A stretch of DNA of 64,000 nucleotides from Bacteroidota bacterium (GCA_041658205.1 JBBAAO010000002.1:55310-119309); one strand, 5' to 3'; positions 34,854 through 57,515 are shown, numbered from the stretch's first letter. Program-made: numbers and translations. Notes: generated by a model from the letters alone, not told the origin.

Positions 34854-35240
34854 ATGACTGTCGAAAATCTCAATCGCATTTCGAAGACAATTCTTGATGC
34901 GTGTATTACTGTTCATCGGGAAATGGGGCCTGGTTTATTAGAATCAATTTATGAGCTATGTCTGTTGGATGAGCTTCAACAAAGAGGATTAGTAGTTGCA
35001 AGCCAAGTTTCAATTCCTTTGAGGTTTAAGGGAAAAGAGCTATCCAAAGATTTTCGTATCGATATTCTTGTTGAAAACGAAATAGTTTTAGAAATTAAAG
35101 CGGTTGACATTTTGCTGCCAGTACATGAAGCACAAATAATCTCATACTTAAAGTTAACAGATAAGAGATTAGGCTTTTTGATCAATTTTAATGTTCCGTT
35201 ATTAAAAAATGGTTTTAAACGATTCGTTCACAATTTTTAA
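34854..35240 (+). CDS. GxxExxY family protein (PD-(D/E)XK-like fold)
   Basis: 128 aa; 'GPGLLESIYE' GxxExxY motif plus conserved 'RIDILVENEIVLEIK'; visibly AT-richer than neighbours. Confidence 0.8.
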   Translation: MTVENLNRISKTILDACITVHREMGPGLLESIYELCLLDELQQRGLVVASQVSIPLRFKGKELSKDFRIDILVENEIVLEIKAVDILLPVHEAQIISYLKLTDKRLGFLINFNVPLLKNGFKRFVHNF

Positions 35241-39627: not shown

Positions 39628-40251
39628 TTAACACTGATCTCTTAGTTTCTCTTCCTCTTTTTGAAATTTTATCAGAGGAATTGGATTAGGAGGTTGTTGT
39701 TTCTGTCGTGCCGTTTTTGGCAGTGCTGTTTCCGCGGAAAGGATATTTGGTTCTCCTCCAAAGAAATAACTTAAAGCTTTTCGCCGTCTAATATAGTTGA
39801 TCCCTCCATATGTCGAATCGATTTTTAATGTGGGGTAAAGAATTTCCTCCTTCCATCCCGCAAATCCTCCAAGCAGCGTGTATACGCTATCATAGTATTT
39901 CATTTTTAGAAGCATCCATGCCTGAGATGCATGGATTCCCCCTTCAGAATACAGCACAACAACTTCATTTCGTTTGATCCCTCCGTTCAGCAGTTCCTGC
40001 AGAGTCATATTCTCCGCATCAGCAATTGTGTTGAGGGCATGCAGTGAAGAATCACGCAAGTCGATTAATCGGATCTTTTTTCCTGCATAGAGCTGTTCGG
40101 CGAGTTCAAGAGGGGTGATATGATCCTGTTCGCTTTCAATGAGCGCAGCAATTTCCGGAACGTTCACTTCTGATTGTTGAGGCGTACCAATGGATGCAGC
40201 AAGAAGTGAAAGAACGAGGACAATACCGACAAGTAATTTATTGAGAGTCAT
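39628..40251 (-). CDS. periplasmic rhodanese-homology domain protein lacking the catalytic cysteine
   Basis: Signal peptide. Rhodanese fold 'IRLIDLRDSSL...VVVLYSEGGIHASQAWMLLK' has Ser where the active-site Cys is expected. Confidence 0.6.
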   Translation of the reverse strand: MTLNKLLVGIVLVLSLLAASIGTPQQSEVNVPEIAALIESEQDHITPLELAEQLYAGKKIRLIDLRDSSLHALNTIADAENMTLQELLNGGIKRNEVVVLYSEGGIHASQAWMLLKMKYYDSVYTLLGGFAGWKEEILYPTLKIDSTYGGINYIRRRKALSYFFGGEPNILSAETALPKTARQKQQPPNPIPLIKFQKEEEKLRDQC

Positions 40252-40256
40252 GAATT

Positions 40257-40844
40257 TTATTCCGTACGAAGTCGTTTTTCAAGATTCTCGGCGCCCCAAA
40301 ATCCGGCAAGCGCTACCAGGACGATAAGGAGCACCGTTGTTCCATGAGAGAGATGCAATACTTGTGACAGAGTAATTTCACCCATTGAGGTCGATGAACA
40401 CCAATCACCGATGAGGGGAAATAATTCGCCAAACAATAAAATTCCAGCAAACATTCCGAGCAAATGGATCCATCCATCCATCTTTCCGGTAACAGAGGCA
40501 ACACAGCATGTTCCGGGACAATAGCCCCCCATCACGAATCCAACTCCAAATACCAATCCGCCAACCAGTTGAGGGATAAGAAATGTTGGAAGAACACCAA
40601 CAAGTGAGAGATCGATCAACCCAAACCAAGAAAACCAAAACAAACCGAGCATTGCAGTAATAATTGCAGTGAACATCACTTTAAAAACCGTGAGATCGCG
40701 AAAATAGAATTGCTGGGCGAGTTTTACGCTGCTTCCGAACCCTGCCTGTTCAAGAAAGAATCCAAAACCAATACCGATAACGACAGCAAATAACAATGCT
40801 GTTTCATTTCCAAATAATCCAAATTGATAGAATGGTGCGTTCAT
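40257..40844 (-). CDS. YeeE/YedE family sulfur-compound transporter, C-terminal-half homologue
   Basis: 'GGYCPGTC' motif of PF04143; ATG 1 nt after the upstream stop. ORF-track start 40904 rejected because it overlaps. Confidence 0.75.
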   Translation of the reverse strand: MNAPFYQFGLFGNETALLFAVVIGIGFGFFLEQAGFGSSVKLAQQFYFRDLTVFKVMFTAIITAMLGLFWFSWFGLIDLSLVGVLPTFLIPQLVGGLVFGVGFVMGGYCPGTCCVASVTGKMDGWIHLLGMFAGILLFGELFPLIGDWCSSTSMGEITLSQVLHLSHGTTVLLIVLVALAGFWGAENLEKRLRTE

Positions 40845-40845
40845 A

Positions 40846-41364
40846 CTAAGTCCACTGCTTTTTAAAAAAATATGCAACGCAATATGCACTGGCAAACACA
40901 GCAATCATAAAGACCCAACTTCCCACACTTAAAAGTGCTCCTCCTGTTAACGCCTGACCGCTTGTGCACCCACGGGCAATCTTGGATCCGAATCCCATCA
41001 GAATGCCACCGGAAAATGCGTACACCATTCTTGTCGTAATGGTAACTCGTGCACTTTTATCAACAGTACGACGCACCCGCCCCGAAATGAGTCCCGAAAT
41101 TAATCCGCCAATCAGCACGCCGAGGATCTCGAAGACGAGCCAATCATTTAACGGATTTCCAGATGGTGTTGAGAGATACTCTTTATAGAAAGTGTTGGAT
41201 TGAGCATGCGACGGTGCGACGCTGTTCACACCAAAAGTGAGAAATGAACTTAATGCACCTGAAGCGCCGAGGCCTCTTCCCATAATTACAAAGGCAGCAA
41301 GCAGGACGAGTCCGATTCCGATGCCTGCGAGGTAAGGATTCATGTATGGTTTGGGTGCACTCAT
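40846..41364 (-). CDS. YeeE/YedE family sulfur-compound transporter, N-terminal-half homologue
   Basis: 'ARGCTSGQALTGGA' motif of PF04143; start chosen at MSAPKPY. Confidence 0.75.
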   Translation of the reverse strand: MSAPKPYMNPYLAGIGIGLVLLAAFVIMGRGLGASGALSSFLTFGVNSVAPSHAQSNTFYKEYLSTPSGNPLNDWLVFEILGVLIGGLISGLISGRVRRTVDKSARVTITTRMVYAFSGGILMGFGSKIARGCTSGQALTGGALLSVGSWVFMIAVFASAYCVAYFFKKQWT

Positions 41365-41457
41365 GGTATATAAGTATGTGAGTAGTTGAGTAACCGAACG
41401 TACGAGGGAATAATATCTCAATTACTCAACTACTTTCGGTATTTTTTCCAAGGAGAT

Positions 41458-42348
41458 CTACTTCTTCACTGACTCCGGTTTTTCGATAGGATAACTATCA
41501 TCCCGCACATTCCAATCCTCAAAACACCCATCGTACACTTTTGCATTGTAGCCGAGATATTTTGCAGCATAATAAACAAGTGTTGCCTGCTGTCCCACAT
41601 GACAATAGGTGACGACCGTGCTTCCTTTCGCGACGCCGGCGCTATCGAAAAGTCTTTGTAACTCAGCGACAGATTTTATTTTATTTGTGCTATCGAGAAC
41701 CGTGTTAAAGACAAGACTCTTCGCACCTTTGATATGTCCTTGGCGAGCAACACCACCTCCGTTACCATCATAAAAATTCTTTGTACGGGCATCAACGATT
41801 GTTACCTTTGGATTGGAGAGATTCTGTTTCACCCAATCGGCATCCGTAATCACCAATGGATCGATCTTCAAAGAAAGTGTTGTTTTTATGAAGTGCGGAA
41901 TTTCTTTAGAGATTGGTCTTCCTTCACTTTTCCACATCTCTAAGCCTCCATCCAACAACGCTGTCTGTTCGGCAAATCCGAAATATGACAAAGCAAGAAT
42001 AATTCTTGTTGTTGTGGTAACATTTTGTCCGGCAAAGACAACCACAATTTTTGAGTCAGATGCAATGCCAAGCTCTTCTAAGGCTTTTTTCCCTTCTTCC
42101 AGCGTTGGCATTTCTGTGTTCAGATCTGGATTCGAAACGGCCAGTGAATTGAACCACACAAATCGAGCCGTGGGGAGGTGTGCATATTTATATTCATTTC
42201 GGCTGAAGCCGACCTGTAAAACGACCAAGTCTTTATCATTGAGATGATCCGAAAGCCATTGAGTTGATACAAATGGGGGAATAGACCGTTCGGCAGATGC
42301 CGATGAAAATACCACGACAACAATCATGAAGCTAAAAAGTGTTCGCAT
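41458..42348 (-). CDS. periplasmic tandem-rhodanese thiosulfate sulfurtransferase-like protein
   Basis: Signal peptide; two rhodanese domains with catalytic 'CHVGQQAT' in the second. Confidence 0.75.
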   Translation of the reverse strand: MRTLFSFMIVVVVFSSASAERSIPPFVSTQWLSDHLNDKDLVVLQVGFSRNEYKYAHLPTARFVWFNSLAVSNPDLNTEMPTLEEGKKALEELGIASDSKIVVVFAGQNVTTTTRIILALSYFGFAEQTALLDGGLEMWKSEGRPISKEIPHFIKTTLSLKIDPLVITDADWVKQNLSNPKVTIVDARTKNFYDGNGGGVARQGHIKGAKSLVFNTVLDSTNKIKSVAELQRLFDSAGVAKGSTVVTYCHVGQQATLVYYAAKYLGYNAKVYDGCFEDWNVRDDSYPIEKPESVKK

Positions 42349-42484: not shown

Positions 42485-42736
42485 TCAGCGAAACAACAGC
42501 AGCGCGGCAAATGAAACGAACAGTCCTGCCGCAAGCAACGAAATGGCGATCGTGCCCATAATATTTTTTTGATCCGGAATTTTTCCTTTGTTCCAAAAGA
42601 AGAGACCTATCAGACCGATAGGATACGCAATGAACAAATTCATGAGGTATGGCCACATCCAGCTGGTGAGGAAAAAAATACTTGCACAACCGATTGCAAT
42701 CAGATTGTAGCGGAAGATTTTTTTATGGTTGGTCAT
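42485..42736 (-). CDS. hypothetical small membrane protein (2 TM)
   Basis: ORF with two hydrophobic helices; no other support. Confidence 0.3.
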   Translation of the reverse strand: MTNHKKIFRYNLIAIGCASIFFLTSWMWPYLMNLFIAYPIGLIGLFFWNKGKIPDQKNIMGTIAISLLAAGLFVSFAALLLFR

Positions 42737-42806: not shown

Positions 42807-44927
42807 TTACTTTACTAGAATTAATTTTTTTGTGTCGCTAAAAGAGCCAGATTGCAGCCGATAAAAATACATTCCACTCGATAGATTCTTTGGAATAAAT
42901 TTGATCGTATATGTACCCGCACGTCGTTCTTCGGCAACAAGTTGTTCTATTTCTCTTCCCATAAGATCGTAAATTGTTAGGGTGACAAACGAATTATGTG
43001 GAACGGTAAAATGAATTGATGTTGTCGGATTAAAAGGATTTGGATAATTTTGGGAGAGTGAAAATGTTGTTGCCGATACTCCAAGATCGGACGGATTCAC
43101 ATTCATAACTTTTGGTTGAGTGCTAAATACGCCATACCAATTTCCCGCATAAAGAAAACCATCACTGGAAAGGGAAAAACAATCCGGGGAGTATATATTT
43201 GTCGATTCCCAGGTATTACCATTATCGGTGGAAACATATGCAGAATCCCATGCGGTATATATAGTCCCTGTGTTTGTTACAATCAGGGCATCAATTGGAT
43301 GAAGATGCCCATTAGTACCAAGAATGCGAGTCCAGGTGACACCATCATCCGTAGATCGTAGCAGCGCATCTATGCTGGACGCAAATATTGTTTTATTCGG
43401 GGAAACAGCTAATGCTTCAACATAACCCCCTTCAAGCAGGGCAGCCATATTTATTGTAGACCACGTATCACCATTATTTGTTGATTTATATACTCCGCCC
43501 GGTCCGCTTGCAAAAATTTTTCCGTCTTTTCCGGGAACAATATCAAAAATTGCTTTTGATAACGTTGTTATAATTTTCCACGTGTTCCCGCCATCCAAAC
43601 TCCGGTAGAGAACCCCATGTTTAAATCCCGCAAAAAGTATCGAATCGTTCAATTTGGCTGTTGCTGTAACAGCATACGCCTGCAACCCGCACCCTGCTAA
43701 TTTCCATTGAATCGTATCCAGCTTTGTGCGATACAAACCGGTTTCTGTGCCGGCAAATAAATATTGATCCGATACGGTTAATAATGAATGCAGGTTGATT
43801 GGGCTTGGCAAGCCAACATCAATTGCCTGCCAATGATCTCCTTTATCCTTTGACATTGATAAACCATAATCAATCGCTCCTGCATATATTGTTCCGTTTG
43901 AACCGACAGTGATATTGCTGATATATTTATTTGCTAAACCAGATGTGAACCATGTTTCTCCGTCATCGGTAGAACTGTAGACCGTACCTCGTGCAGTCGC
44001 TCCGTACAAAATACCGCCGGAATCAAGTGCTATTTTCCTGATGTTGTTTCCTAAATTTTTTCCGGCAACAAAGTTCCACGTTGTGCCGCTGTCAGCGGAG
44101 AATATAATTTTCCCTCCATAACCGGCAAAATATTTTCCACCGAAAGAACTAATAATAAAACCTTCAAAATGTCCCATTGTGCCATGCTTCTTCCAGGTAT
44201 TTCCCTGATCAGTCGAGACAAAAAAACCTCCCATATTAAACGAAACATAGAGAGTGCCATTTTTATCTGTCGTCATTGTTTCAACAATAAAATTTGTTTG
44301 TTCAAGACCGGCATTTTTTGAAATCCAGGATTTTCCGCTATCAACCGATGTAAAAACACCAAGCCGTCCTCCGGCAAACAAAGTGCCGGTTGTATCTGCA
44401 ACAATGTGAGTAAAAGAATATGCTGTATCGCTTGCATTGAGAAGATTCCAGGATATTCCATCGTTTGAAGAAGCATAAAGACCATAGTTGTACATAACAA
44501 CGAATAAGATTCTATTTGCTTCAGCAAGACGAGAAACACGTTGTGGATCCAACGGGAGGGAATTTGCAATATTAATCCATTCTGTTTTACCCGAATCCAA
44601 GCGAAAAAAAGATTCGTTTGTTACCACAACTAATTGCTTTTTCGACGTACGGAGCAACTGCAAAACAAATCTTCCGGGAGTTTGTTTATGTTCCCAATTT
44701 TTTCCGGCGTCGGATGAATAAGACAACTTTCCATCTCCCAATCCATTAAATGAATTTGTCCAAACGTAAATTTGACCAGAGTCTCCCGCCGTCATTGAGC
44801 GAATATCTCCCCCATATGGTCCATTAAGTTGTTTCCAAAAATTTAACTGTGCGAATGCCGGATTGACATGAACAGCGGTCAGGAAGGCTAAAAATGCATA
44901 TAATTTCATATGACCTACAGAATTCAT
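42807..44927 (-). CDS. secreted BNR/Ycf48-like repeat protein with T9SS C-terminal sorting domain
   Basis: Signal peptide; many 'GxTW'/'DGGxTW' BNR-like repeats; C-terminal 'FSLSQNYPNPFNPTTSIHFTVP...LILVK'. Confidence 0.7.
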   Translation of the reverse strand: MNSVGHMKLYAFLAFLTAVHVNPAFAQLNFWKQLNGPYGGDIRSMTAGDSGQIYVWTNSFNGLGDGKLSYSSDAGKNWEHKQTPGRFVLQLLRTSKKQLVVVTNESFFRLDSGKTEWINIANSLPLDPQRVSRLAEANRILFVVMYNYGLYASSNDGISWNLLNASDTAYSFTHIVADTTGTLFAGGRLGVFTSVDSGKSWISKNAGLEQTNFIVETMTTDKNGTLYVSFNMGGFFVSTDQGNTWKKHGTMGHFEGFIISSFGGKYFAGYGGKIIFSADSGTTWNFVAGKNLGNNIRKIALDSGGILYGATARGTVYSSTDDGETWFTSGLANKYISNITVGSNGTIYAGAIDYGLSMSKDKGDHWQAIDVGLPSPINLHSLLTVSDQYLFAGTETGLYRTKLDTIQWKLAGCGLQAYAVTATAKLNDSILFAGFKHGVLYRSLDGGNTWKIITTLSKAIFDIVPGKDGKIFASGPGGVYKSTNNGDTWSTINMAALLEGGYVEALAVSPNKTIFASSIDALLRSTDDGVTWTRILGTNGHLHPIDALIVTNTGTIYTAWDSAYVSTDNGNTWESTNIYSPDCFSLSSDGFLYAGNWYGVFSTQPKVMNVNPSDLGVSATTFSLSQNYPNPFNPTTSIHFTVPHNSFVTLTIYDLMGREIEQLVAEERRAGTYTIKFIPKNLSSGMYFYRLQSGSFSDTKKLILVK

Positions 44928-52657: not shown

Positions 52658-54004
52658 TTAACGTAATAAGATCATTTTTTTTGTTTGTGTGAAATTTTTT
52701 ACTTCCAATCGGTAAAAATATGTTCCGGACGCTGCCTCTTCGTCGCTTTCGATTCTTCCATCCCACGAGACTTTAACCATCCCTTTTTTCGCTTGATCGC
52801 TGAAGAGTGTTTTAATCCACGCACCGGTAATATCATAGACGGAAATCGTGGCGAACCCATCTTCCGGAATAGAAAATTCGATGGTGGTCTGCGGATTGAA
52901 CGGATTCGGATAATTCTGCTGCAACGAAGTTGATGACGGAACGCTTTCTGCTGTTTGCCTTACGCCGATTGTTGCATCGGATGAATATTTCCAAACACCA
53001 GAACCGGAAACATACATCAATGAATCGTTCATCTTTCGAAATCGATTCAAACTGTTTCCAATGGTGATGGATGTCCAGGTTGTTCCACCGTCTGTCGTTT
53101 GTTTCGGAGCGAGGGAAGTTCCGCCGGCCCAGCCAAGTGTATCATTCAAAAAACCAATTCCCTGCACAAAATACCCGGAAGCGGAAAATTGCTTGGGCAC
53201 CCATGTCAGCCCGCCGTCCGTTGTTTTCAAAATGAAGACTGGAGCAACATTGCTGTTCCGTTGAAGACTGACGTAACCAATCTTTCGGGAAGGGAAGTTG
53301 ATCTTCCATGCCCATTCATTCGTTCTCGTAGCAACATAAACTGTGTCCCATGTTTCACCTGCATCGGCGGTAGAGAGGATGATAGCGCGCGATTTTTCAT
53401 GTGTGGTATCGGTGAGCCCAATGGTGATTCCGGAATCTTTTGTAAAAAATCGGACATCAATTAAACCTGCCGCATATGCTTTCATATCCTTGGCAATCCA
53501 CGTTGCTCCGCGATCGGTCGTCTTATAAAACCAAGCCGGACCGCGGACTCTGCCGACGCCGTATATGATGGAATCATCGACGACATGCATTCCGCAAAAA
53601 CCACGTTCAAAAGTTTTGCTTGTCAGTTGATGTTCCGGATTCCAGTTCAATCCGCCGTTCGTGGTTTTGTACAGAATCACCGTATCCTTTGCGTTTGGAT
53701 TATTCACATCTCCCCAGCCAAGCGCGCCGGCATAGCCATTCAGCGAATCAAAAAAGCCAATGGAACGGAAATGAGTAAATGTTCCCTTATTCAACTGTCG
53801 GGTCCATGTGATGCCACCATCTGTCGTTCGGTGGATCTGGCCTATTCCATTTGCCACAAAACCAATCTGCGGATTTACGAAGAAAATATCGTTAATTCGG
53901 GATGAATTTGCCGTATAATCGAAATTCGTCTTCTTCCACGAACGCGACTGCTGAGCGGACACCGTGATGAAGAGAAAGAACAAAAGCACAAAAATATTTT
54001 TCAT
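52658..54004 (-). CDS. secreted BNR/Ycf48-like repeat protein with T9SS C-terminal sorting domain
   Basis: Signal peptide; 'TTDGGxTW' repeats; C-terminal 'SLQQNYPNPFNPQTTIEFSIP...MILLR'. Confidence 0.7.
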   Translation of the reverse strand: MKNIFVLLFFLFITVSAQQSRSWKKTNFDYTANSSRINDIFFVNPQIGFVANGIGQIHRTTDGGITWTRQLNKGTFTHFRSIGFFDSLNGYAGALGWGDVNNPNAKDTVILYKTTNGGLNWNPEHQLTSKTFERGFCGMHVVDDSIIYGVGRVRGPAWFYKTTDRGATWIAKDMKAYAAGLIDVRFFTKDSGITIGLTDTTHEKSRAIILSTADAGETWDTVYVATRTNEWAWKINFPSRKIGYVSLQRNSNVAPVFILKTTDGGLTWVPKQFSASGYFVQGIGFLNDTLGWAGGTSLAPKQTTDGGTTWTSITIGNSLNRFRKMNDSLMYVSGSGVWKYSSDATIGVRQTAESVPSSTSLQQNYPNPFNPQTTIEFSIPEDGFATISVYDITGAWIKTLFSDQAKKGMVKVSWDGRIESDEEAASGTYFYRLEVKNFTQTKKMILLR

Positions 54005-55268: not shown

Positions 55269-57515
55269 TTACAACATCCCACTCTGCTTTCTGAGCAGCC
55301 ATTCAACGCCGAATAAGAGAACGATAATTGTTAGGAATGTCGGCAGATTCCATAATTCAAATTCTTGCGTTCGTGTTTGTTCCTGCATCTGCATCTCTTT
55401 TCGGGAAAGGATCTTTTCCACTAACGAAGTAAATCCGTCAACATCGGAATACATCCCTCCGGATGCGGAAGCAAGCTGTTTCATCAACGACTTATTCATT
55501 TTCGTTTCTGCAAATTCAATCGATTGCTCGCCGACAGAAATTCTTCCGTTTGTCGATCCAAGCGTATCACCATTGGCAAGAGCAACTGCGGAATAGCTGA
55601 ATTCTCCTTCTGAAAGAGTTTCAATAATTCCTTCGTATAGTCCGGTACCGATTGACGATAGCGTGGTTTCATATCGTTCATTGTTCTTATGCGAACGGAT
55701 GGAAATAAACACTTCCGCATTGTCCACCGGTTGATAACTTTGATTATACACCTGCGCAGCAAAGTCTATCTGTTCGCCTTGTGTATAAAATTCCTTTGAT
55801 GGTTCAACACGGAAGAAGGAATCCTGCTCTCGAGTGGCAAGCCATCGGATGAGCGATATGAACCATTGATCGAAAAAATTCTTTGTTTCACCAGACGAAC
55901 CGGCGAGCACTTTCCAGCGATGCAATCCGTAACCGGCAAATGCTGCGGATTTAATGTTGCCGATTGTGCGGATAAGAAAAAGGGGATTTGTCAAGGGAAC
56001 ATTTTGAATCCTAACAGAAAGAAGCTGCTGCGCTTCCGGTTTTGCCAAGAACGTCGGCAAGGAATAGAAGATCGGCGGAAGTTTTTCTATCATCGATCCG
56101 TTATTCTGCAATAATTGATGGAACATGTATTTCTCAGAAACAGTCGGTAGAATCATCTGTTCATCGATCCGATCCGAAGCAACAGTGAACGGGAAAAATT
56201 TCTCCAACAACCGTACCTTCTGAAGATCGAGCGTTCTTCCTGCAATAAAAAGGACCGGAAGGGAGCGCGAGGAGAGTATTTGTTGAAACTGTTGGATAAA
56301 CGACGACGAAGTAGAGGAAACCGGGAACCCGATCGTGACGACTGCATCTGCTTTTGTCAGTGAAGATTGGATCTCCAAATTCTCTTTTTGGGATTTGAAT
56401 TCACCGTTTGGAAGTTGATAAAAAAGATTTGCGTTGATGTTCTTTTCACTATTCAGCGCCTGCATTACCGCGGCAACGTCAGGACTTACCATGCCGGCGA
56501 TAATGACAACATTCATTTTATTTTTAAGAATTTTCACTAACGCAGATCGGCTGTTGTTCTTCGTAGTCAATTCTCCTTCTACACCGGACACCGCAACGGA
56601 TAATTTTTTTACACCGTCAGTTGCTGAGATGTAAGAAAATTGGAGAGGAATTTCTGTAATTCCATTGGATGCCGGAATAGCGGCTGTCTGCTCTGCAATT
56701 TTTTTTCCGTCTTCCAATAACGATACGGAGATTGTTCGCGCAGAAATACCCGATGCTTTTATTGTTGCATCAACAGGAATTGCTGCATCCACATAACCGA
56801 TGGAGTTCGCAAGGAGTTTTGAAACGGAAATATCTTTTTGTTCATTTGTGTCTCCCACACCAACGGTAAAGAGTGGTATCCTGCTTTTCTCCGCATCATA
56901 GAGTGGATTTGATCCTGCATTATAATTTCCATCTGATACTAAAATAATTCCGCGCAGATCGTCGATTGTTTTTAATGAGGTTTGTATTGCAGAGGAGATG
57001 TTTGTTGTTCCTCCGTTTATGTTGAGCGATTCCGGGATTAACGTTGTTGTGGAGTATGAAAACGAAAACATTTTCAGATCAACCGAACCGGAAAGTTTTT
57101 CGACGGCATCGCTTTGAAGCAATGATGTCACTGTTTTTTCTCGATTTCCCGCTCCGTCCGTTTGGGACATGCTCAATGAGTTATCAACAAGCAATGCAAT
57201 AGAGGGTCGTTTATTTTCCGTAAAGATCAGTTGAAATAGCGGCTCGCAAATTGCCAGAAGAATAAATGTTAGCGCTGTTCCTCGAAGAAACACTAGAATC
57301 ATGCGCTTCGCAGTGGAAACCTGGGGAACGGTATAGCGGTACAGGTAATGCGATACCGTAAACGATACAACAATAAAAACGAAAACAAGATAGAGCGGTA
57401 ATTGAAAAGAAAGATTCATACTGCAACAAATGTACAATAAAAATCCCCAAGACCAAGGGATTGAGGATGAAAAATCAGCCGGTCTTTCGTTGGAACGGCT
57501 TGTCAGACGGTCCAA
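55269..57515 (-). CDS. large membrane-anchored von Willebrand factor A domain protein (BatA-like N-terminal double TM)
   Basis: Two N-terminal TM helices, MIDAS 'LLVDNSLSMS', C-terminal TM; likely starts at an internal Met (MNLSF...). Confidence 0.55.
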   Translation of the reverse strand: MDRLTSRSNERPADFSSSIPWSWGFLLYICCSMNLSFQLPLYLVFVFIVVSFTVSHYLYRYTVPQVSTAKRMILVFLRGTALTFILLAICEPLFQLIFTENKRPSIALLVDNSLSMSQTDGAGNREKTVTSLLQSDAVEKLSGSVDLKMFSFSYSTTTLIPESLNINGGTTNISSAIQTSLKTIDDLRGIILVSDGNYNAGSNPLYDAEKSRIPLFTVGVGDTNEQKDISVSKLLANSIGYVDAAIPVDATIKASGISARTISVSLLEDGKKIAEQTAAIPASNGITEIPLQFSYISATDGVKKLSVAVSGVEGELTTKNNSRSALVKILKNKMNVVIIAGMVSPDVAAVMQALNSEKNINANLFYQLPNGEFKSQKENLEIQSSLTKADAVVTIGFPVSSTSSSFIQQFQQILSSRSLPVLFIAGRTLDLQKVRLLEKFFPFTVASDRIDEQMILPTVSEKYMFHQLLQNNGSMIEKLPPIFYSLPTFLAKPEAQQLLSVRIQNVPLTNPLFLIRTIGNIKSAAFAGYGLHRWKVLAGSSGETKNFFDQWFISLIRWLATREQDSFFRVEPSKEFYTQGEQIDFAAQVYNQSYQPVDNAEVFISIRSHKNNERYETTLSSIGTGLYEGIIETLSEGEFSYSAVALANGDTLGSTNGRISVGEQSIEFAETKMNKSLMKQLASASGGMYSDVDGFTSLVEKILSRKEMQMQEQTRTQEFELWNLPTFLTIIVLLFGVEWLLRKQSGML

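Follow-up and report, generated by a model that had tools for sequence, protein, structure and literature searches.

How might bacteria bring sulfur from beyond their cell membrane into YeeE-type channels? The locus described here may show one such route. It lies in a 64,000-nt stretch of DNA from a Bacteroidota bacterium (the window), and consists of four minus-strand genes. These are Rhd2 (41458..42348, 296 aa), a tandem (two-domain) rhodanese predicted to be secreted; half A (40846..41364, 172 aa) and half B (40257..40844, 195 aa), which resemble the C-terminal half (PmpA-like) and the N-terminal half (PmpB-like) of a YeeE/YedE transporter, respectively; and RhdS (39628..40251, 207 aa), a rhodanese-fold protein without a catalytic cysteine, with a predicted membrane tether and a tail ending in cysteine. 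The lengths of the halves were counted from the ATG codons at 41364 (the mechanical open reading frame of half A begins earlier, at a TTG) and 40844. All four reading frames described in the first-pass annotation were found, as were the motifs quoted there: CHVGQQAT (Rhd2 Cys249), GCTSGQALTG (half A Cys133), GGYCPGTC (half B Cys109) and VVVLYSEGGIHAS (RhdS Ser102). The genes follow one another in the order given, at measured gaps of 93, 1 and 5 nt, which agree with the spacing of 1–93 nt given before.

We read the four genes as one functional module, a sulfur relay at the periplasmic face of the inner membrane that is coupled to a two-subunit YeeE/YedE-type channel. Sulfane sulfur would pass from the rhodanese to the tail cysteine of RhdS, from there to the channel cysteines and into the cell; the direction and the substrate are what we infer. 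The probability of this reading is roughly 45%.

Two half-size YeeE/YedE proteins

Both halves matched the Pfam family Sulf_transp (PF04143, cut-off 27), half A with 78.5 bits over profile positions 177–308 of 310 and half B with 65.2 bits over positions 4–151, and have the YeeE fold of the YeeE/YedE superfamily. Half A aligned to residues 235–325 of Spirochaeta thermophila YeeE (StYeeE). Its Cys133 (codon 40966..40968, minus strand, in ARGCTSGQALTG) corresponds to Cys293 of StYeeE in the alignment to 6lep/8j4c and is invariant in 84/84 homologues. Cys109 of half B (codon 40518..40520, minus strand, in GGYCPGT) corresponds to Cys91 in the alignment to 6leo and is kept in 87 of the 88 homologues. 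In the same alignment, the equivalent of the third cysteine of StYeeE (TsuA), Cys22, is a glycine in half B. Half A carries a 26-residue insertion relative to a 146-aa Sulfuricella protein, and half B continues into an additional helix at its C terminus (residues 167–194).

TsuA is a thiosulfate importer, and the first-pass annotation had taken the locus for a variant of this uptake system. A full-length TsuA/YeeE-type protein is replaced here by the products of two genes (172 and 195 aa), and the best scores of the halves against the TsuA models of NCBIfam were 45.6 (cut-off 400, NF052577) and 40 (cut-off 645, NF041049), about a tenth of the cut-offs. With these scores and the glycine at the Cys22 position, the case for a TsuA-type importer of thiosulfate is not made. 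The NCBIfam model for selenium YedE gave about the same scores as the TsuA models.

Only 1 nt separates half A from half B, as would be expected if one YeeE gene had been broken by a frameshift; together with a misaligned serine in RhdS this would make the locus an artefact, an explanation that we find hardly credible. The same split, with the same permuted order, recurs in 87/87 related loci, from many assemblies and including complete genomes of cultured strains. Since the C-half-like gene precedes the N-half-like gene, joining the frames would not give a canonical YeeE. Both halves are also strongly conserved (62–89% identity for half B among its 120 best homologues). A sequencing or assembly frameshift, the error that the first-pass annotation had itself named as a possible cause, was therefore ruled out, and the split is real.

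A rhodanese fold with a serine loop and a terminal cysteine

RhdS matched Pfam Rhodanese (PF00581) with 45.1 bits. Its AlphaFold2 (AF2) model has a pLDDT of 84.9 (> 90 in the domain), and a Foldseek search with this model matched single-domain rhodaneses with a probability of 1.00. The family comprises about 230 clusters at 50% identity (E <= 1e-30). In the family profile alignment, Ser102 (codon 39946..39948, minus strand, loop SEGGIHA) occupies the position of the catalytic cysteine in the rhodanese structure 6mxv (LYSEGGIHAS versus FYCGGGFRSA). This position is a serine in 115 of the 120 RhdS homologues, and the loop residues E103, G104, G105, H107 and Q110 are invariant or almost so. The replacement of the active-site cysteine by serine reported earlier is thus a family-wide feature, and the profile alignment excludes that it arose from misalignment, which removes the second support of the artefact explanation.

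The N-terminal hydrophobic helix of RhdS (residues 3–20, 40192..40245, minus strand), a helix in the AF2 model, has the character of a signal-anchor. Its N-terminal flank is more positive than its C-terminal flank in 112/116 homologues, and the positive-inside rule, the basis of this assignment, predicts an N-in orientation; the domain and the tail are therefore predicted to be periplasmic. The C-terminal residues 172–207 (39631..39738, minus strand) form a tail that is disordered in the AF2 model, with pLDDT < 50 at residues 178–198. It ends in Cys207 (codon 39631–39633, minus strand), the sole cysteine of RhdS. Of 116 homologues, 115 have a terminal cysteine, and 106 of the 116 contain exactly one cysteine. 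The family tail has a median length of 41 residues and is rich in A, P and K; a polybasic stretch that is common to most tails is absent from the subclade of the window. Distant relatives have lost the serine loop, yet keep the end ...KKKKKxQGGC[ST].

The first-pass annotation had concluded from the serine that RhdS is catalytically dead and may be a binding or sensor subunit, which overlooks this invariant last-residue cysteine on a disordered tail. Elaborated, that proposal would be TsuA-like uptake of thiosulfate, in which the cysteine-less rhodanese is a non-catalytic subunit that binds or senses thiosulfate like a tethered substrate-binding protein, and the terminal cysteine is incidental or structural. 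The loop geometry is kept with serine, and its nearly invariant residues would fit a site that binds an anion but does not cleave it. Thiosulfate is moreover common to the enzymes found next to the channel genes (a substrate of rhodanese and Phs, a product of Otr; see below), and the halves do match the TsuA models, if weakly. We nevertheless consider it unlikely: the terminal cysteine is the most conserved feature of RhdS and outlasts the loop motif in distant relatives, the TsuA scores and the Cys22 position speak against a TsuA, and no TusA/TsuB partner is encoded in the window or the related loci. The conserved tail cysteine instead points to a carrier role for RhdS, as judged from the sequences and the model.

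In Fulvitalea, half B is fused to the RhdS anchor, rhodanese domain and tail. Six or more divergent metagenomic proteins (388–425 aa, each with GC or SC at the C terminus) are fusions of the same kind, which brings the total to at least seven. In the fusion proteins the anchor segment forms an internal transmembrane helix after a basic linker. These fusions argue for a physical coupling of RhdS to the channel.

Partner enzymes and the proposed relay

Rhd2 matched PF00581 in two stretches with 97 bits (gathering cut-off 22.2), so that both rhodanese-like proteins and both halves score above the Pfam cut-offs. Its best NCBIfam match was 3-mercaptopyruvate sulfurtransferase (SseA), at 110 bits below the cut-off of 250, which gives no equivalog-level assignment; the likeness to ExtH of the selenite/tellurite operon is weak (57 bits, cut-off 200). 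The N-terminal domain is inactive, and the catalytic Cys249, placed from the sequence, lies in the six-residue loop (CHVGQQ) of the C-terminal domain (codon 41602..41604, minus strand, motif CHVGQQAT). This cysteine is kept, as CHVGQQAT or CGGGIAAS, in 14/14 aligned Rhd2-type proteins. A Sec signal peptide is predicted at residues 1–19 (MRTLFSFMIVVVVFSSASA, 42292..42348, minus strand) with cleavage after ASA and before ER, as read from the protein itself, and each of the 13 aligned homologues likewise has a hydrophobic leader at its start.

Within the 93 nt that separate Rhd2 from half A lies a long hairpin (41381..41434, minus strand), found by an inverted-repeat search and RNA folding. Its arms are perfect over 13 bp and extend to about 18 bp, with a folding energy of -27.4 kcal/mol (z = -3.4); no T-run follows it, and it matched no Rfam family. 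Similar long hairpins of different sequence occupy the same gap in loci L006, L012 and L014. The hairpin may adjust expression of the soluble parts relative to the membrane parts.

Half A, half B and RhdS (the trio) occur in the same order in all 87 loci, RhdS always 3' of half B, and partners were counted in the 74 species-representative loci with sufficient upstream DNA, which span at least nine phyla and all share this order (74/74). The gene directly upstream of the trio encodes a cysteine-containing rhodanese, predicted to be periplasmic, in 11 of the 74 loci (L009 included) and a Psr/Phs-like molybdoenzyme (PsrABC-like genes) in the other 63. In 11 loci an Rhd2 homologue stands directly 5' of half A, as it does in the cultured Gemmatirosa kalamazoonensis, which belongs to another phylum and has the same four-gene form. 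The rhodanese-led form of the window is thus the minority version of a wider system. In Fulvitalea, the upstream partner is an octaheme tetrathionate reductase (Otr) with a cytochrome b. MerR genes precede 21 loci, a Melioribacter metagenome-assembled genome (L084) has the full MerR-PsrABC-A-B-RhdS cluster, and genes for MobA-like, AhpD-like (CMD), thioredoxin and DUF302 proteins recur downstream in Psr-type loci. Together with the Pfam matches, this survey supports the view of the first-pass annotation that the locus is a module for sulfur trafficking with a split YeeE/YedE transporter at its core. It had also described two periplasmic rhodanese-fold partners, which fits our results with the periplasmic side as a prediction, argued from the signal peptide of Rhd2, the twin-arginine leader (SRRRFLK) of the PsrA partners and the charge bias of the RhdS anchor.

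In the proposed relay, thiosulfate or polysulfide would donate a sulfane sulfur atom to Cys249 of Rhd2, which would hand it to the thiol of RhdS Cys207, where persulfide chemistry is envisaged. RhdS would be held at the membrane by its N-terminal helix, packed against half B, and the flexible tail of about 40 residues would serve as a swinging arm, bringing the sulfur into the vestibule of a putative half A/half B heterodimer. There, Cys133 of half A and Cys109 of half B, one per half and the equivalents of the two essential cysteines of TsuA and YedE1E2, would relay it to the cytoplasm. The cysteine-less domain of RhdS, with its intact cradle S-E-G-G-I-H, probably docks the partner enzyme, the loaded tail or an anionic sulfur species. 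Most other genomes have the trio wired to a Psr/Phs-like molybdoenzyme or an octaheme tetrathionate reductase, not to Rhd2. For the inward direction the argument comes only from relatives, and among these the tested YedE1E2 is only distantly related to the window halves.

Several observations count against the relay. The products of the reductase in 63/74 loci need no obvious importer, and the tail in the subclade of the window has no polybasic stretch. The 64-kb window has no TusA-like open reading frame and no G..CP.P signature of the right size, and tblastn with the E. coli TusA sequence found no TusA in the fetched loci. The earlier finding that no TusA-like gene lies nearby therefore held in the window and extends to these loci, and neither encodes a cytoplasmic acceptor of the TusA or DsrE type.

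The prevalence of reductases raises a different role for the tail cysteine, that of a Sud-like carrier that serves not import but a periplasmic enzyme (the active-site funnel of PsrA, Otr or Rhd2), to which it would present polysulfide or sulfane sulfur; half A/half B would then export cytoplasmic sulfane sulfur to load the tail, or be mainly a membrane dock. The Psr of Wolinella takes polysulfide sulfur from the periplasmic rhodanese-like Sud, whose chain in 1qxn is weakly similar to RhdS (E 2.5e-4), and a long flexible arm fits a deep active-site funnel. The 63 reductase loci, with the Otr locus and the genes that recur 3' of the Psr-type loci, are in line with such a service. Against it, the characterised YeeE/YedE members all import, and YedE1E2 was shown not to export. 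The window and Gemmatirosa versions have no reductase, and the channel and its two cysteines are still invariant; a mere dock would not need conserved pore cysteines. On balance we regard this role as fairly unlikely.

The MerR genes bear on a further possibility, that the system handles metalloids (As, Se or Te): the thiols of tail and channel would bind or move As(III), Se or Te species made by the partner, or the rhodanese would thiolate arsenite. In Melioribacter roseus, arsenate strongly induces MROS_1774, a Psr/Phs-type gene with a MerR-like gene upstream, for which a role as the respiratory arsenate reductase was proposed (PMC5492636). This homologous psr/phsA gene responds to arsenate and not to sulfur (PMC5492636), which also counts against the sulfur relay, and the psrABC genes of M. 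roseus are the closest relative of the cluster of Thiel et al., which has two DUF395 genes and a rhodanese downstream (PMC6338057). The Melioribacter cluster and the 21 MerR-led loci agree with this, as do the selenium link of YedE relatives, with the equal scores of the halves on both models, and the weak ExtH likeness of Rhd2. Conversely, the arsenate result is an RT-PCR of psrA, and the downstream genes of M. roseus lay outside the scope of that paper. No Psr, MerR, ars or selenium genes occur near the module in the window, where a sulfurtransferase is the only enzyme of the module, and the Otr and rhodanese partners point to sulfur. A metalloid function appears quite improbable.

Comparison with known sulfur-transfer systems

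The first-pass annotation had counted the split among the features of an uncharacterised variant. Two-gene YeeE proteins are already known, however: PmpAB/YedE1E2 have the same gene order and one conserved cysteine each (PMC11582611, PMC10812762). As in the window, PmpA/PmpB of Serratia and YedE1E2 of Cupriavidus pinatubonensis and Sinorhizobium meliloti are encoded by adjacent half-size genes, C-half-like first and N-half-like second, with their cysteines at the C293 and C91 positions of TsuA and without the C22 equivalent. YedE1E2 brings in zero-valent sulfur and does not export it, and requires one cysteine per half (PMC10812762); among split halves, this requirement is known for CpYedE1E2 only (PMC10812762). 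At 172 and 195 aa, the halves in the window exceed the length of these proteins (about 130–146 aa), with the insertion in half A and the extra helix of half B, and depart from the PmpAB-type pattern of four transmembrane helices per half of about 130–140 aa. RhdS always comes after them and a periplasmic sulfur enzyme before them; partners of this kind have not been reported for PmpAB/YedE1E2, whose neighbors are ArsR/BigR regulators, persulfide dioxygenase or the TusA-like PmpC. A tblastn search of a plasmid collection with half A (E <= 1e-3) returned four records, none from Sinorhizobium, though SmYedE1E2 (Sma1053/1052) was expected there.

TsuA/TsuB (YeeE/YeeD) of E. coli and Spirochaeta thermophila (6LEO, 8J4C) share with the window two of the three functional cysteines and the use of a small sulfur-carrier partner with a single cysteine. 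TsuA is a single chain of 330–350 aa with a cytoplasmic partner of the TusA fold, whereas the window transporter is split and its partner is a membrane-tethered rhodanese-fold protein predicted to be periplasmic.

A parallel to the proposed handover is SoxYZ with SoxT1A in Hyphomicrobium denitrificans, where SoxT1A was proposed to import sulfur from the cysteine arm of periplasmic SoxYZ (PMC11582611); pmpAB genes also occur near a Sox(YZ) fusion (PMC11582611). As in the SoxY and DsrC arms, the flexible C-terminal peptide of RhdS bears an invariant cysteine at its tip; SoxY ends in GGCGG, and distant RhdS relatives have GGCS or GGCT in this place. The proteins are not homologous: SoxY is Ig-like and soluble with SoxZ, and RhdS, which has neither the Ig-like nor the DsrC fold, is an anchored, cysteine-less rhodanese fold whose tail is, at about 41 residues, much longer. 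SoxT, in addition, is a full-length YeeE. Sud of Wolinella succinogenes (1QXN), which serves PsrABC, resembles RhdS as a periplasmic single-domain rhodanese fold that works with a Psr-type molybdoenzyme. It differs in being soluble, in carrying sulfur on the cysteine of the active-site loop, where RhdS has serine, and in having no YeeE partner.

The trio itself has appeared in print within a PSRLC2-like MerR-psrABC-DUF395-DUF395-rhodanese cluster listed for Ca. Thermonerobacter, Melioribacter roseus and Ignavibacterium album (PMC6338057). That study lists genes only; the serine, the terminal cysteine, the tail, the fusions and the rhodanese-led variant are not noted there, and in the literature that we searched the Psr version of the trio is mentioned in passing only. 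The listed cluster shares the trio with our 63 loci, and the window has a secreted cysteine-rhodanese (as predicted from its leader) in the place of MerR-PsrABC. The split YeeE of PmpAB/YedE1E2 was known; the module is conserved but uncharacterised, and its rhodanese-led variant is new within that literature.

A split YeeE/YedE transporter flanked by rhodanese-type genes

The module consists of four genes on the minus strand, separated by 93, 1 and 5 nt. Rhd2 (41458–42348, 296 aa), a secreted tandem rhodanese with the catalytic residue Cys249, contains two Pfam rhodanese domains (97 bits). It is followed by two half-size YeeE/YedE proteins that match Pfam Sulf_transp: half A (40846–41364, 172 aa counted from ATG; 78.5 bits, profile positions 177–308 of 310) and half B (40257–40844, 195 aa counted from ATG; 65.2 bits, profile positions 4–151). 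The last gene (39628–40251, 207 aa) encodes RhdS, a rhodanese-fold protein with Ser102 at the catalytic position and a single Pfam rhodanese domain (45.1 bits). The open reading frames and Pfam matches bear out the four minus-strand genes and all the motifs quoted in the first-pass annotation, including the presence of Sulf_transp in both halves and of rhodanese domains in Rhd2 and RhdS, for which it had proposed a Pfam check. None of the four proteins was assigned to an equivalog family by the NCBIfam models.

Half A aligns with residues 235–325 of the solved S. thermophila YeeE, placing its Cys133 (ARGCTSGQ) on Cys293, and half B aligns with residues 6–115, placing its Cys109 (GGYCPGT) on Cys91. 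The position of Cys22 of S. thermophila YeeE is occupied by a glycine in half B. Cys133 of half A is conserved in 84/84 homologues and Cys109 of half B in 87/88, and the remaining cysteines of the two window proteins are not conserved. The same gene order recurs across 87 loci, complete genomes included, which rules out a frameshift or assembly error as the cause of the split; the split reported from the sequence is genuine.

Previous work described PmpA and PmpB as resembling the C-terminal and N-terminal half of YeeE, respectively, with one cysteine each and no C22 (Li et al., PMC11582611), and the related YedE1E2 imports, but does not export, zero-valent sulfur in a manner that requires both cysteines (Xun and co-workers, PMC10812762). 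A split YeeE is therefore already known. The halves in the window share the C-half/N-half division, the single cysteine per half and the missing C22 with these proteins, but are a longer, distant version (172 and 195 aa, compared to approximately 130–146 aa per half in PmpAB and YedE1E2). A tblastn search of a plasmid collection with half A (E ≤ 1e-3) gave four records, none from Sinorhizobium, and thus did not retrieve the tested SmYedE1E2. The NCBIfam TsuA models score 40–46 bits against cut-offs of 400–645. The first-pass interpretation thus stands as far as a split module of the YeeE/YedE superfamily is concerned, but not as a thiosulfate uptake system of the TsuA type: the module is of the split, PmpAB-like kind and is not a TsuA/TsuB system. 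Its distinctive component is the uncharacterised, tethered and carrier-like protein RhdS.

A search for a nearby TusA-like gene, also proposed at first pass, found none in the 64-kb window or in the fetched loci, with an E. coli TusA sequence as query. No sulfur functions were found among the neighboring genes of the window, which are related to threonine biosynthesis, esterases, type IX secretion (T9SS) cargo and MoxR. An 83-aa hydrophobic open reading frame 136 nt upstream of Rhd2 (42485–42736, minus strand) was considered as a fifth gene; it has no Pfam match and no counterpart in related loci, and is probably not part of the module. Two minus-strand genes (42807–44927 and 52658–54004) encode secreted BNR/Sortilin-Vps10/YCF48-like beta-propeller proteins with T9SS C-terminal sorting domains, consistent with a host from the Bacteroidota/Ignavibacteriota group. 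A 128-aa gene of the PD-(D/E)XK nuclease superfamily (34854–35240, plus strand; PDDEXK_3, E 1.8e-40) lies within an apparent threonine-biosynthesis cluster, flanked by genes matching the amino-acid kinase and ACT, PALP and GHMP kinase families. A 748-aa open reading frame (55269–57515, minus strand) has no Pfam match at E ≤ 0.001.

All aligned Rhd2 homologues begin with a hydrophobic leader and retain the catalytic cysteine, in the context CHVGQQAT in the form of approximately 300 aa and CGGGIAAS in that of approximately 550 aa. A long perfect hairpin (41381–41434, minus strand) with 13-bp arms, extendable to approximately 18 bp (−27.4 kcal/mol, z −3.4), lies in the 93 nt that separate Rhd2 from half A. 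The hairpin is not followed by a T-run and matches no Rfam family, and a scan for consensus promoters and terminators gave no more sites than in shuffled sequence. In three related loci (L006, L012 and L014) this gap also holds a hairpin, equally long but unrelated in sequence, and other loci are nearly gapless here. The hairpin may affect the processing or stability of the mRNA, or set the ratio of soluble to membrane subunits by attenuation.

The serine loop, anchor and C-terminal tail of RhdS

The catalytic cysteine position of RhdS is occupied by serine in 115/120 homologues, and the family profile places this serine on the catalytic cysteine of a solved rhodanese. An alignment artefact is thereby ruled out, and the substitution, correctly called from the window sequence, is family-wide. 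The remainder of the loop, S-E-G-G-I-H, is nearly invariant. At the opposite end of the protein, the final residue is a cysteine in 115/116 full-length homologues, 106 of which (106/116) contain no second cysteine. This residue was missed at first pass, where RhdS was regarded as a dead rhodanese that may act as a binding or sensor subunit, and its invariance weakens that view. We consider a TsuA-like thiosulfate importer in which RhdS merely serves as the binding subunit to be quite unlikely.

The AlphaFold2 model of RhdS (pLDDT 84.9) comprises a helix (residues 3–20), a confident rhodanese domain (residues 30–171) and a tail from residue 172 with pLDDT < 50. Tail length has a median of 41 residues in a set of 204 family members, and Ala, Pro and Lys are abundant in the tail. 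Most tails end in a polybasic stretch (...KKKKEGC), and those of the window subclade in ...EEKLRDQC. The Ser loop motif has been lost from more distant relatives in the cultured Chondrinema and Fulvitalea, whose proteins still end in ...KKKKKxQGGCS or ...GGCT. In 112/116 proteins the hydrophobic helix is flanked by more positive charge on its N-terminal side than on its C-terminal side, a bias that predicts an N-in orientation and hence a periplasmic domain and tail.

When 1.84 billion representatives were searched with a profile, the RhdS family came to approximately 230 clusters (50% identity) at E ≤ 1e-30. The same search yielded at least six further fusions of half B to RhdS (388–425 aa), all with GC or SC ends, two of which were confirmed by Pfam domains. 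The contigs of two fusion proteins (P0348 and P0290) end short of the position of the upstream partner. The existence of such fusions in some species argues that RhdS works in direct physical contact with half B, and that the hydrophobic N-terminus of RhdS is retained as a membrane helix and not cleaved off as a leader.

Distribution and upstream enzymes

A scan with one genome per species identified RhdS relatives in 259 species-representative genomes. We surveyed the loci of the best 80 of these 259, together with loci from an exact protein look-up. The best 80 originate from Ignavibacteriota, Bacteroidota, Acidobacteriota, Gammaproteobacteria, Myxococcota, Gemmatimonadota, Calditrichota, KSB1 and Eisenbacteria MAGs. 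Database entries identical to the RhdS and half B of the window come from a Bacteroidota MAG, and the closest relatives are Ignavibacteria-like. In every locus surveyed half A, half B and RhdS (the trio) occur in a fixed order. Sufficient upstream DNA for typing was available in 74/80 loci. A PsrA-PsrB-PsrC-like set lies directly upstream of the trio in 63/74, and a secreted rhodanese with catalytic cysteine, as in the window, in 11/74 (including L009, counted as rhodanese-led). The Psr-like catalytic subunit carries a twin-arginine leader and matches PhsA best (514 bits, cut-off 694), far above the Arr, Ttr and DMSO-reductase models. As Sud serves Psr, the RhdS arm might serve its partner enzyme in the same manner, a reading that we hold to be unlikely.

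Among cultured carriers, Chondrinema litorale has the Psr form and Gemmatirosa kalamazoonensis the four-gene rhodanese form found in the window. In Fulvitalea axinellae an octaheme tetrathionate reductase and a cytochrome b take the position of the upstream enzyme, and a single protein combines half B with the anchor, rhodanese domain and tail.

In 21 loci, a gene of the MerR family lies ahead of the Psr set. Melioribacter roseus likewise has a MerR gene upstream of its homologous psr/phsA, whose induction by arsenate (PMC5492636) could point to metalloid handling by the module. However, the window contains no reductase, MerR, ars or selenium genes, and we regard this explanation as improbable. 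Thiel et al. (2019, PMC6338057) listed a cluster of the Psr type in Ca. Thermonerobacter, composed of MerR, psrABC, two DUF395 genes and a rhodanese, and noted that M. roseus and I. album have similar psrABC genes; they did not analyse the rhodanese. This passing mention was the only literature found on a terminal-Cys rhodanese or a rhodanese-YeeE-YeeE-rhodanese operon; no description of the Ser substitution, terminal cysteine, tail, fusions or rhodanese-led variant was found in the literature searched, outside of which most subscription journals fall.

Several genes recur downstream of RhdS in Psr-type loci (e.g., L001, 7005–9444): MobA-like NTP_transf_3 (25 loci), CMD/AhpD-like (13), thioredoxin (10), DUF302 (7) and sometimes a second small rhodanese. 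None of these is present in the window. On plasmid 1 of G. kalamazoonensis, an open reading frame (L094, 8663–10027) begins 7 nt ahead of the stop codon of RhdS. Judged by eye, its translation resembles a class V aminotransferase of the cysteine desulfurase or Moco-sulfurase type, and it could encode a cytoplasmic protein that handles sulfur as a partner of the module in this organism.

In some single MAGs the trio is present twice, each time on a separate contig (L008/L053, L009/L043 and L073/L085). The RhdS of one copy in UBA6688 and B4_bin.17 is approximately 62–63% identical to that of the window, and the RhdS of the other approximately 40%. In both MAGs the copy with the higher identity is rhodanese-led, and the more distant one has too little upstream DNA for typing. 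LaPlata bin-535 has two Psr-type copies. If the distant copies are Psr-led, as their level of similarity suggests, the rhodanese-led and Psr-led forms would be coexisting paralogous systems.

A candidate sulfur relay and its relation to known systems

The passage of sulfur across the inner membrane is among the less well understood steps of bacterial sulfur metabolism, for which YeeE/YedE proteins are the leading candidates. In the mechanism we propose, Rhd2, or an alternative periplasmic enzyme, would generate or hold sulfane sulfur, the cysteine of the RhdS tail would accept it, and the arm would hand it to the channel formed by half A and half B for import. The model draws on the predicted periplasmic location of all soluble components, on the pairing of the trio with three different enzymes that act on inorganic sulfur in the periplasm, and on the tail cysteine and one cysteine per channel half being the sole universally conserved thiols. 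We infer that the chemistry involves persulfides, in which order the sulfur is transferred and that it moves inward, and give the mechanism as a whole slightly less than even odds. More tentatively, with a probability of roughly 0.35, RhdS would represent a new class of periplasmic sulfur carrier, in which a disarmed rhodanese scaffold is tethered or fused to a split YeeE, and a swinging arm of 40 residues uses its terminal cysteine to carry sulfane sulfur into the channel from a rhodanese, a Psr/Phs-like reductase or an octaheme tetrathionate reductase.

If this is correct, an extracytoplasmic donor for a YeeE-family importer would have been identified for the first time in RhdS, which would connect the respiratory and periplasmic chemistry of sulfur with the cytoplasm in at least nine phyla. 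The module travels with Psr/Phs-like enzymes whose physiological role is disputed, such as sulfur versus arsenate respiration in Melioribacter. It offers a testable candidate for periplasmic sulfur hand-over, with a single invariant C-terminal cysteine that can be mutated, and experiments are feasible because G. kalamazoonensis, C. litorale and F. axinellae are cultured.

In the literature consulted, the partners of YeeE/YedE proteins are cytoplasmic TusA-like proteins, in addition to a proposed periplasmic role of SoxYZ, from which sulfur would pass to SoxT1A (PMC11582611). The proposed RhdS relay mirrors this hand-over to a YeeE-family importer, and its channel step would mirror the cysteine-dependent import by YedE1E2 (PMC10812762).
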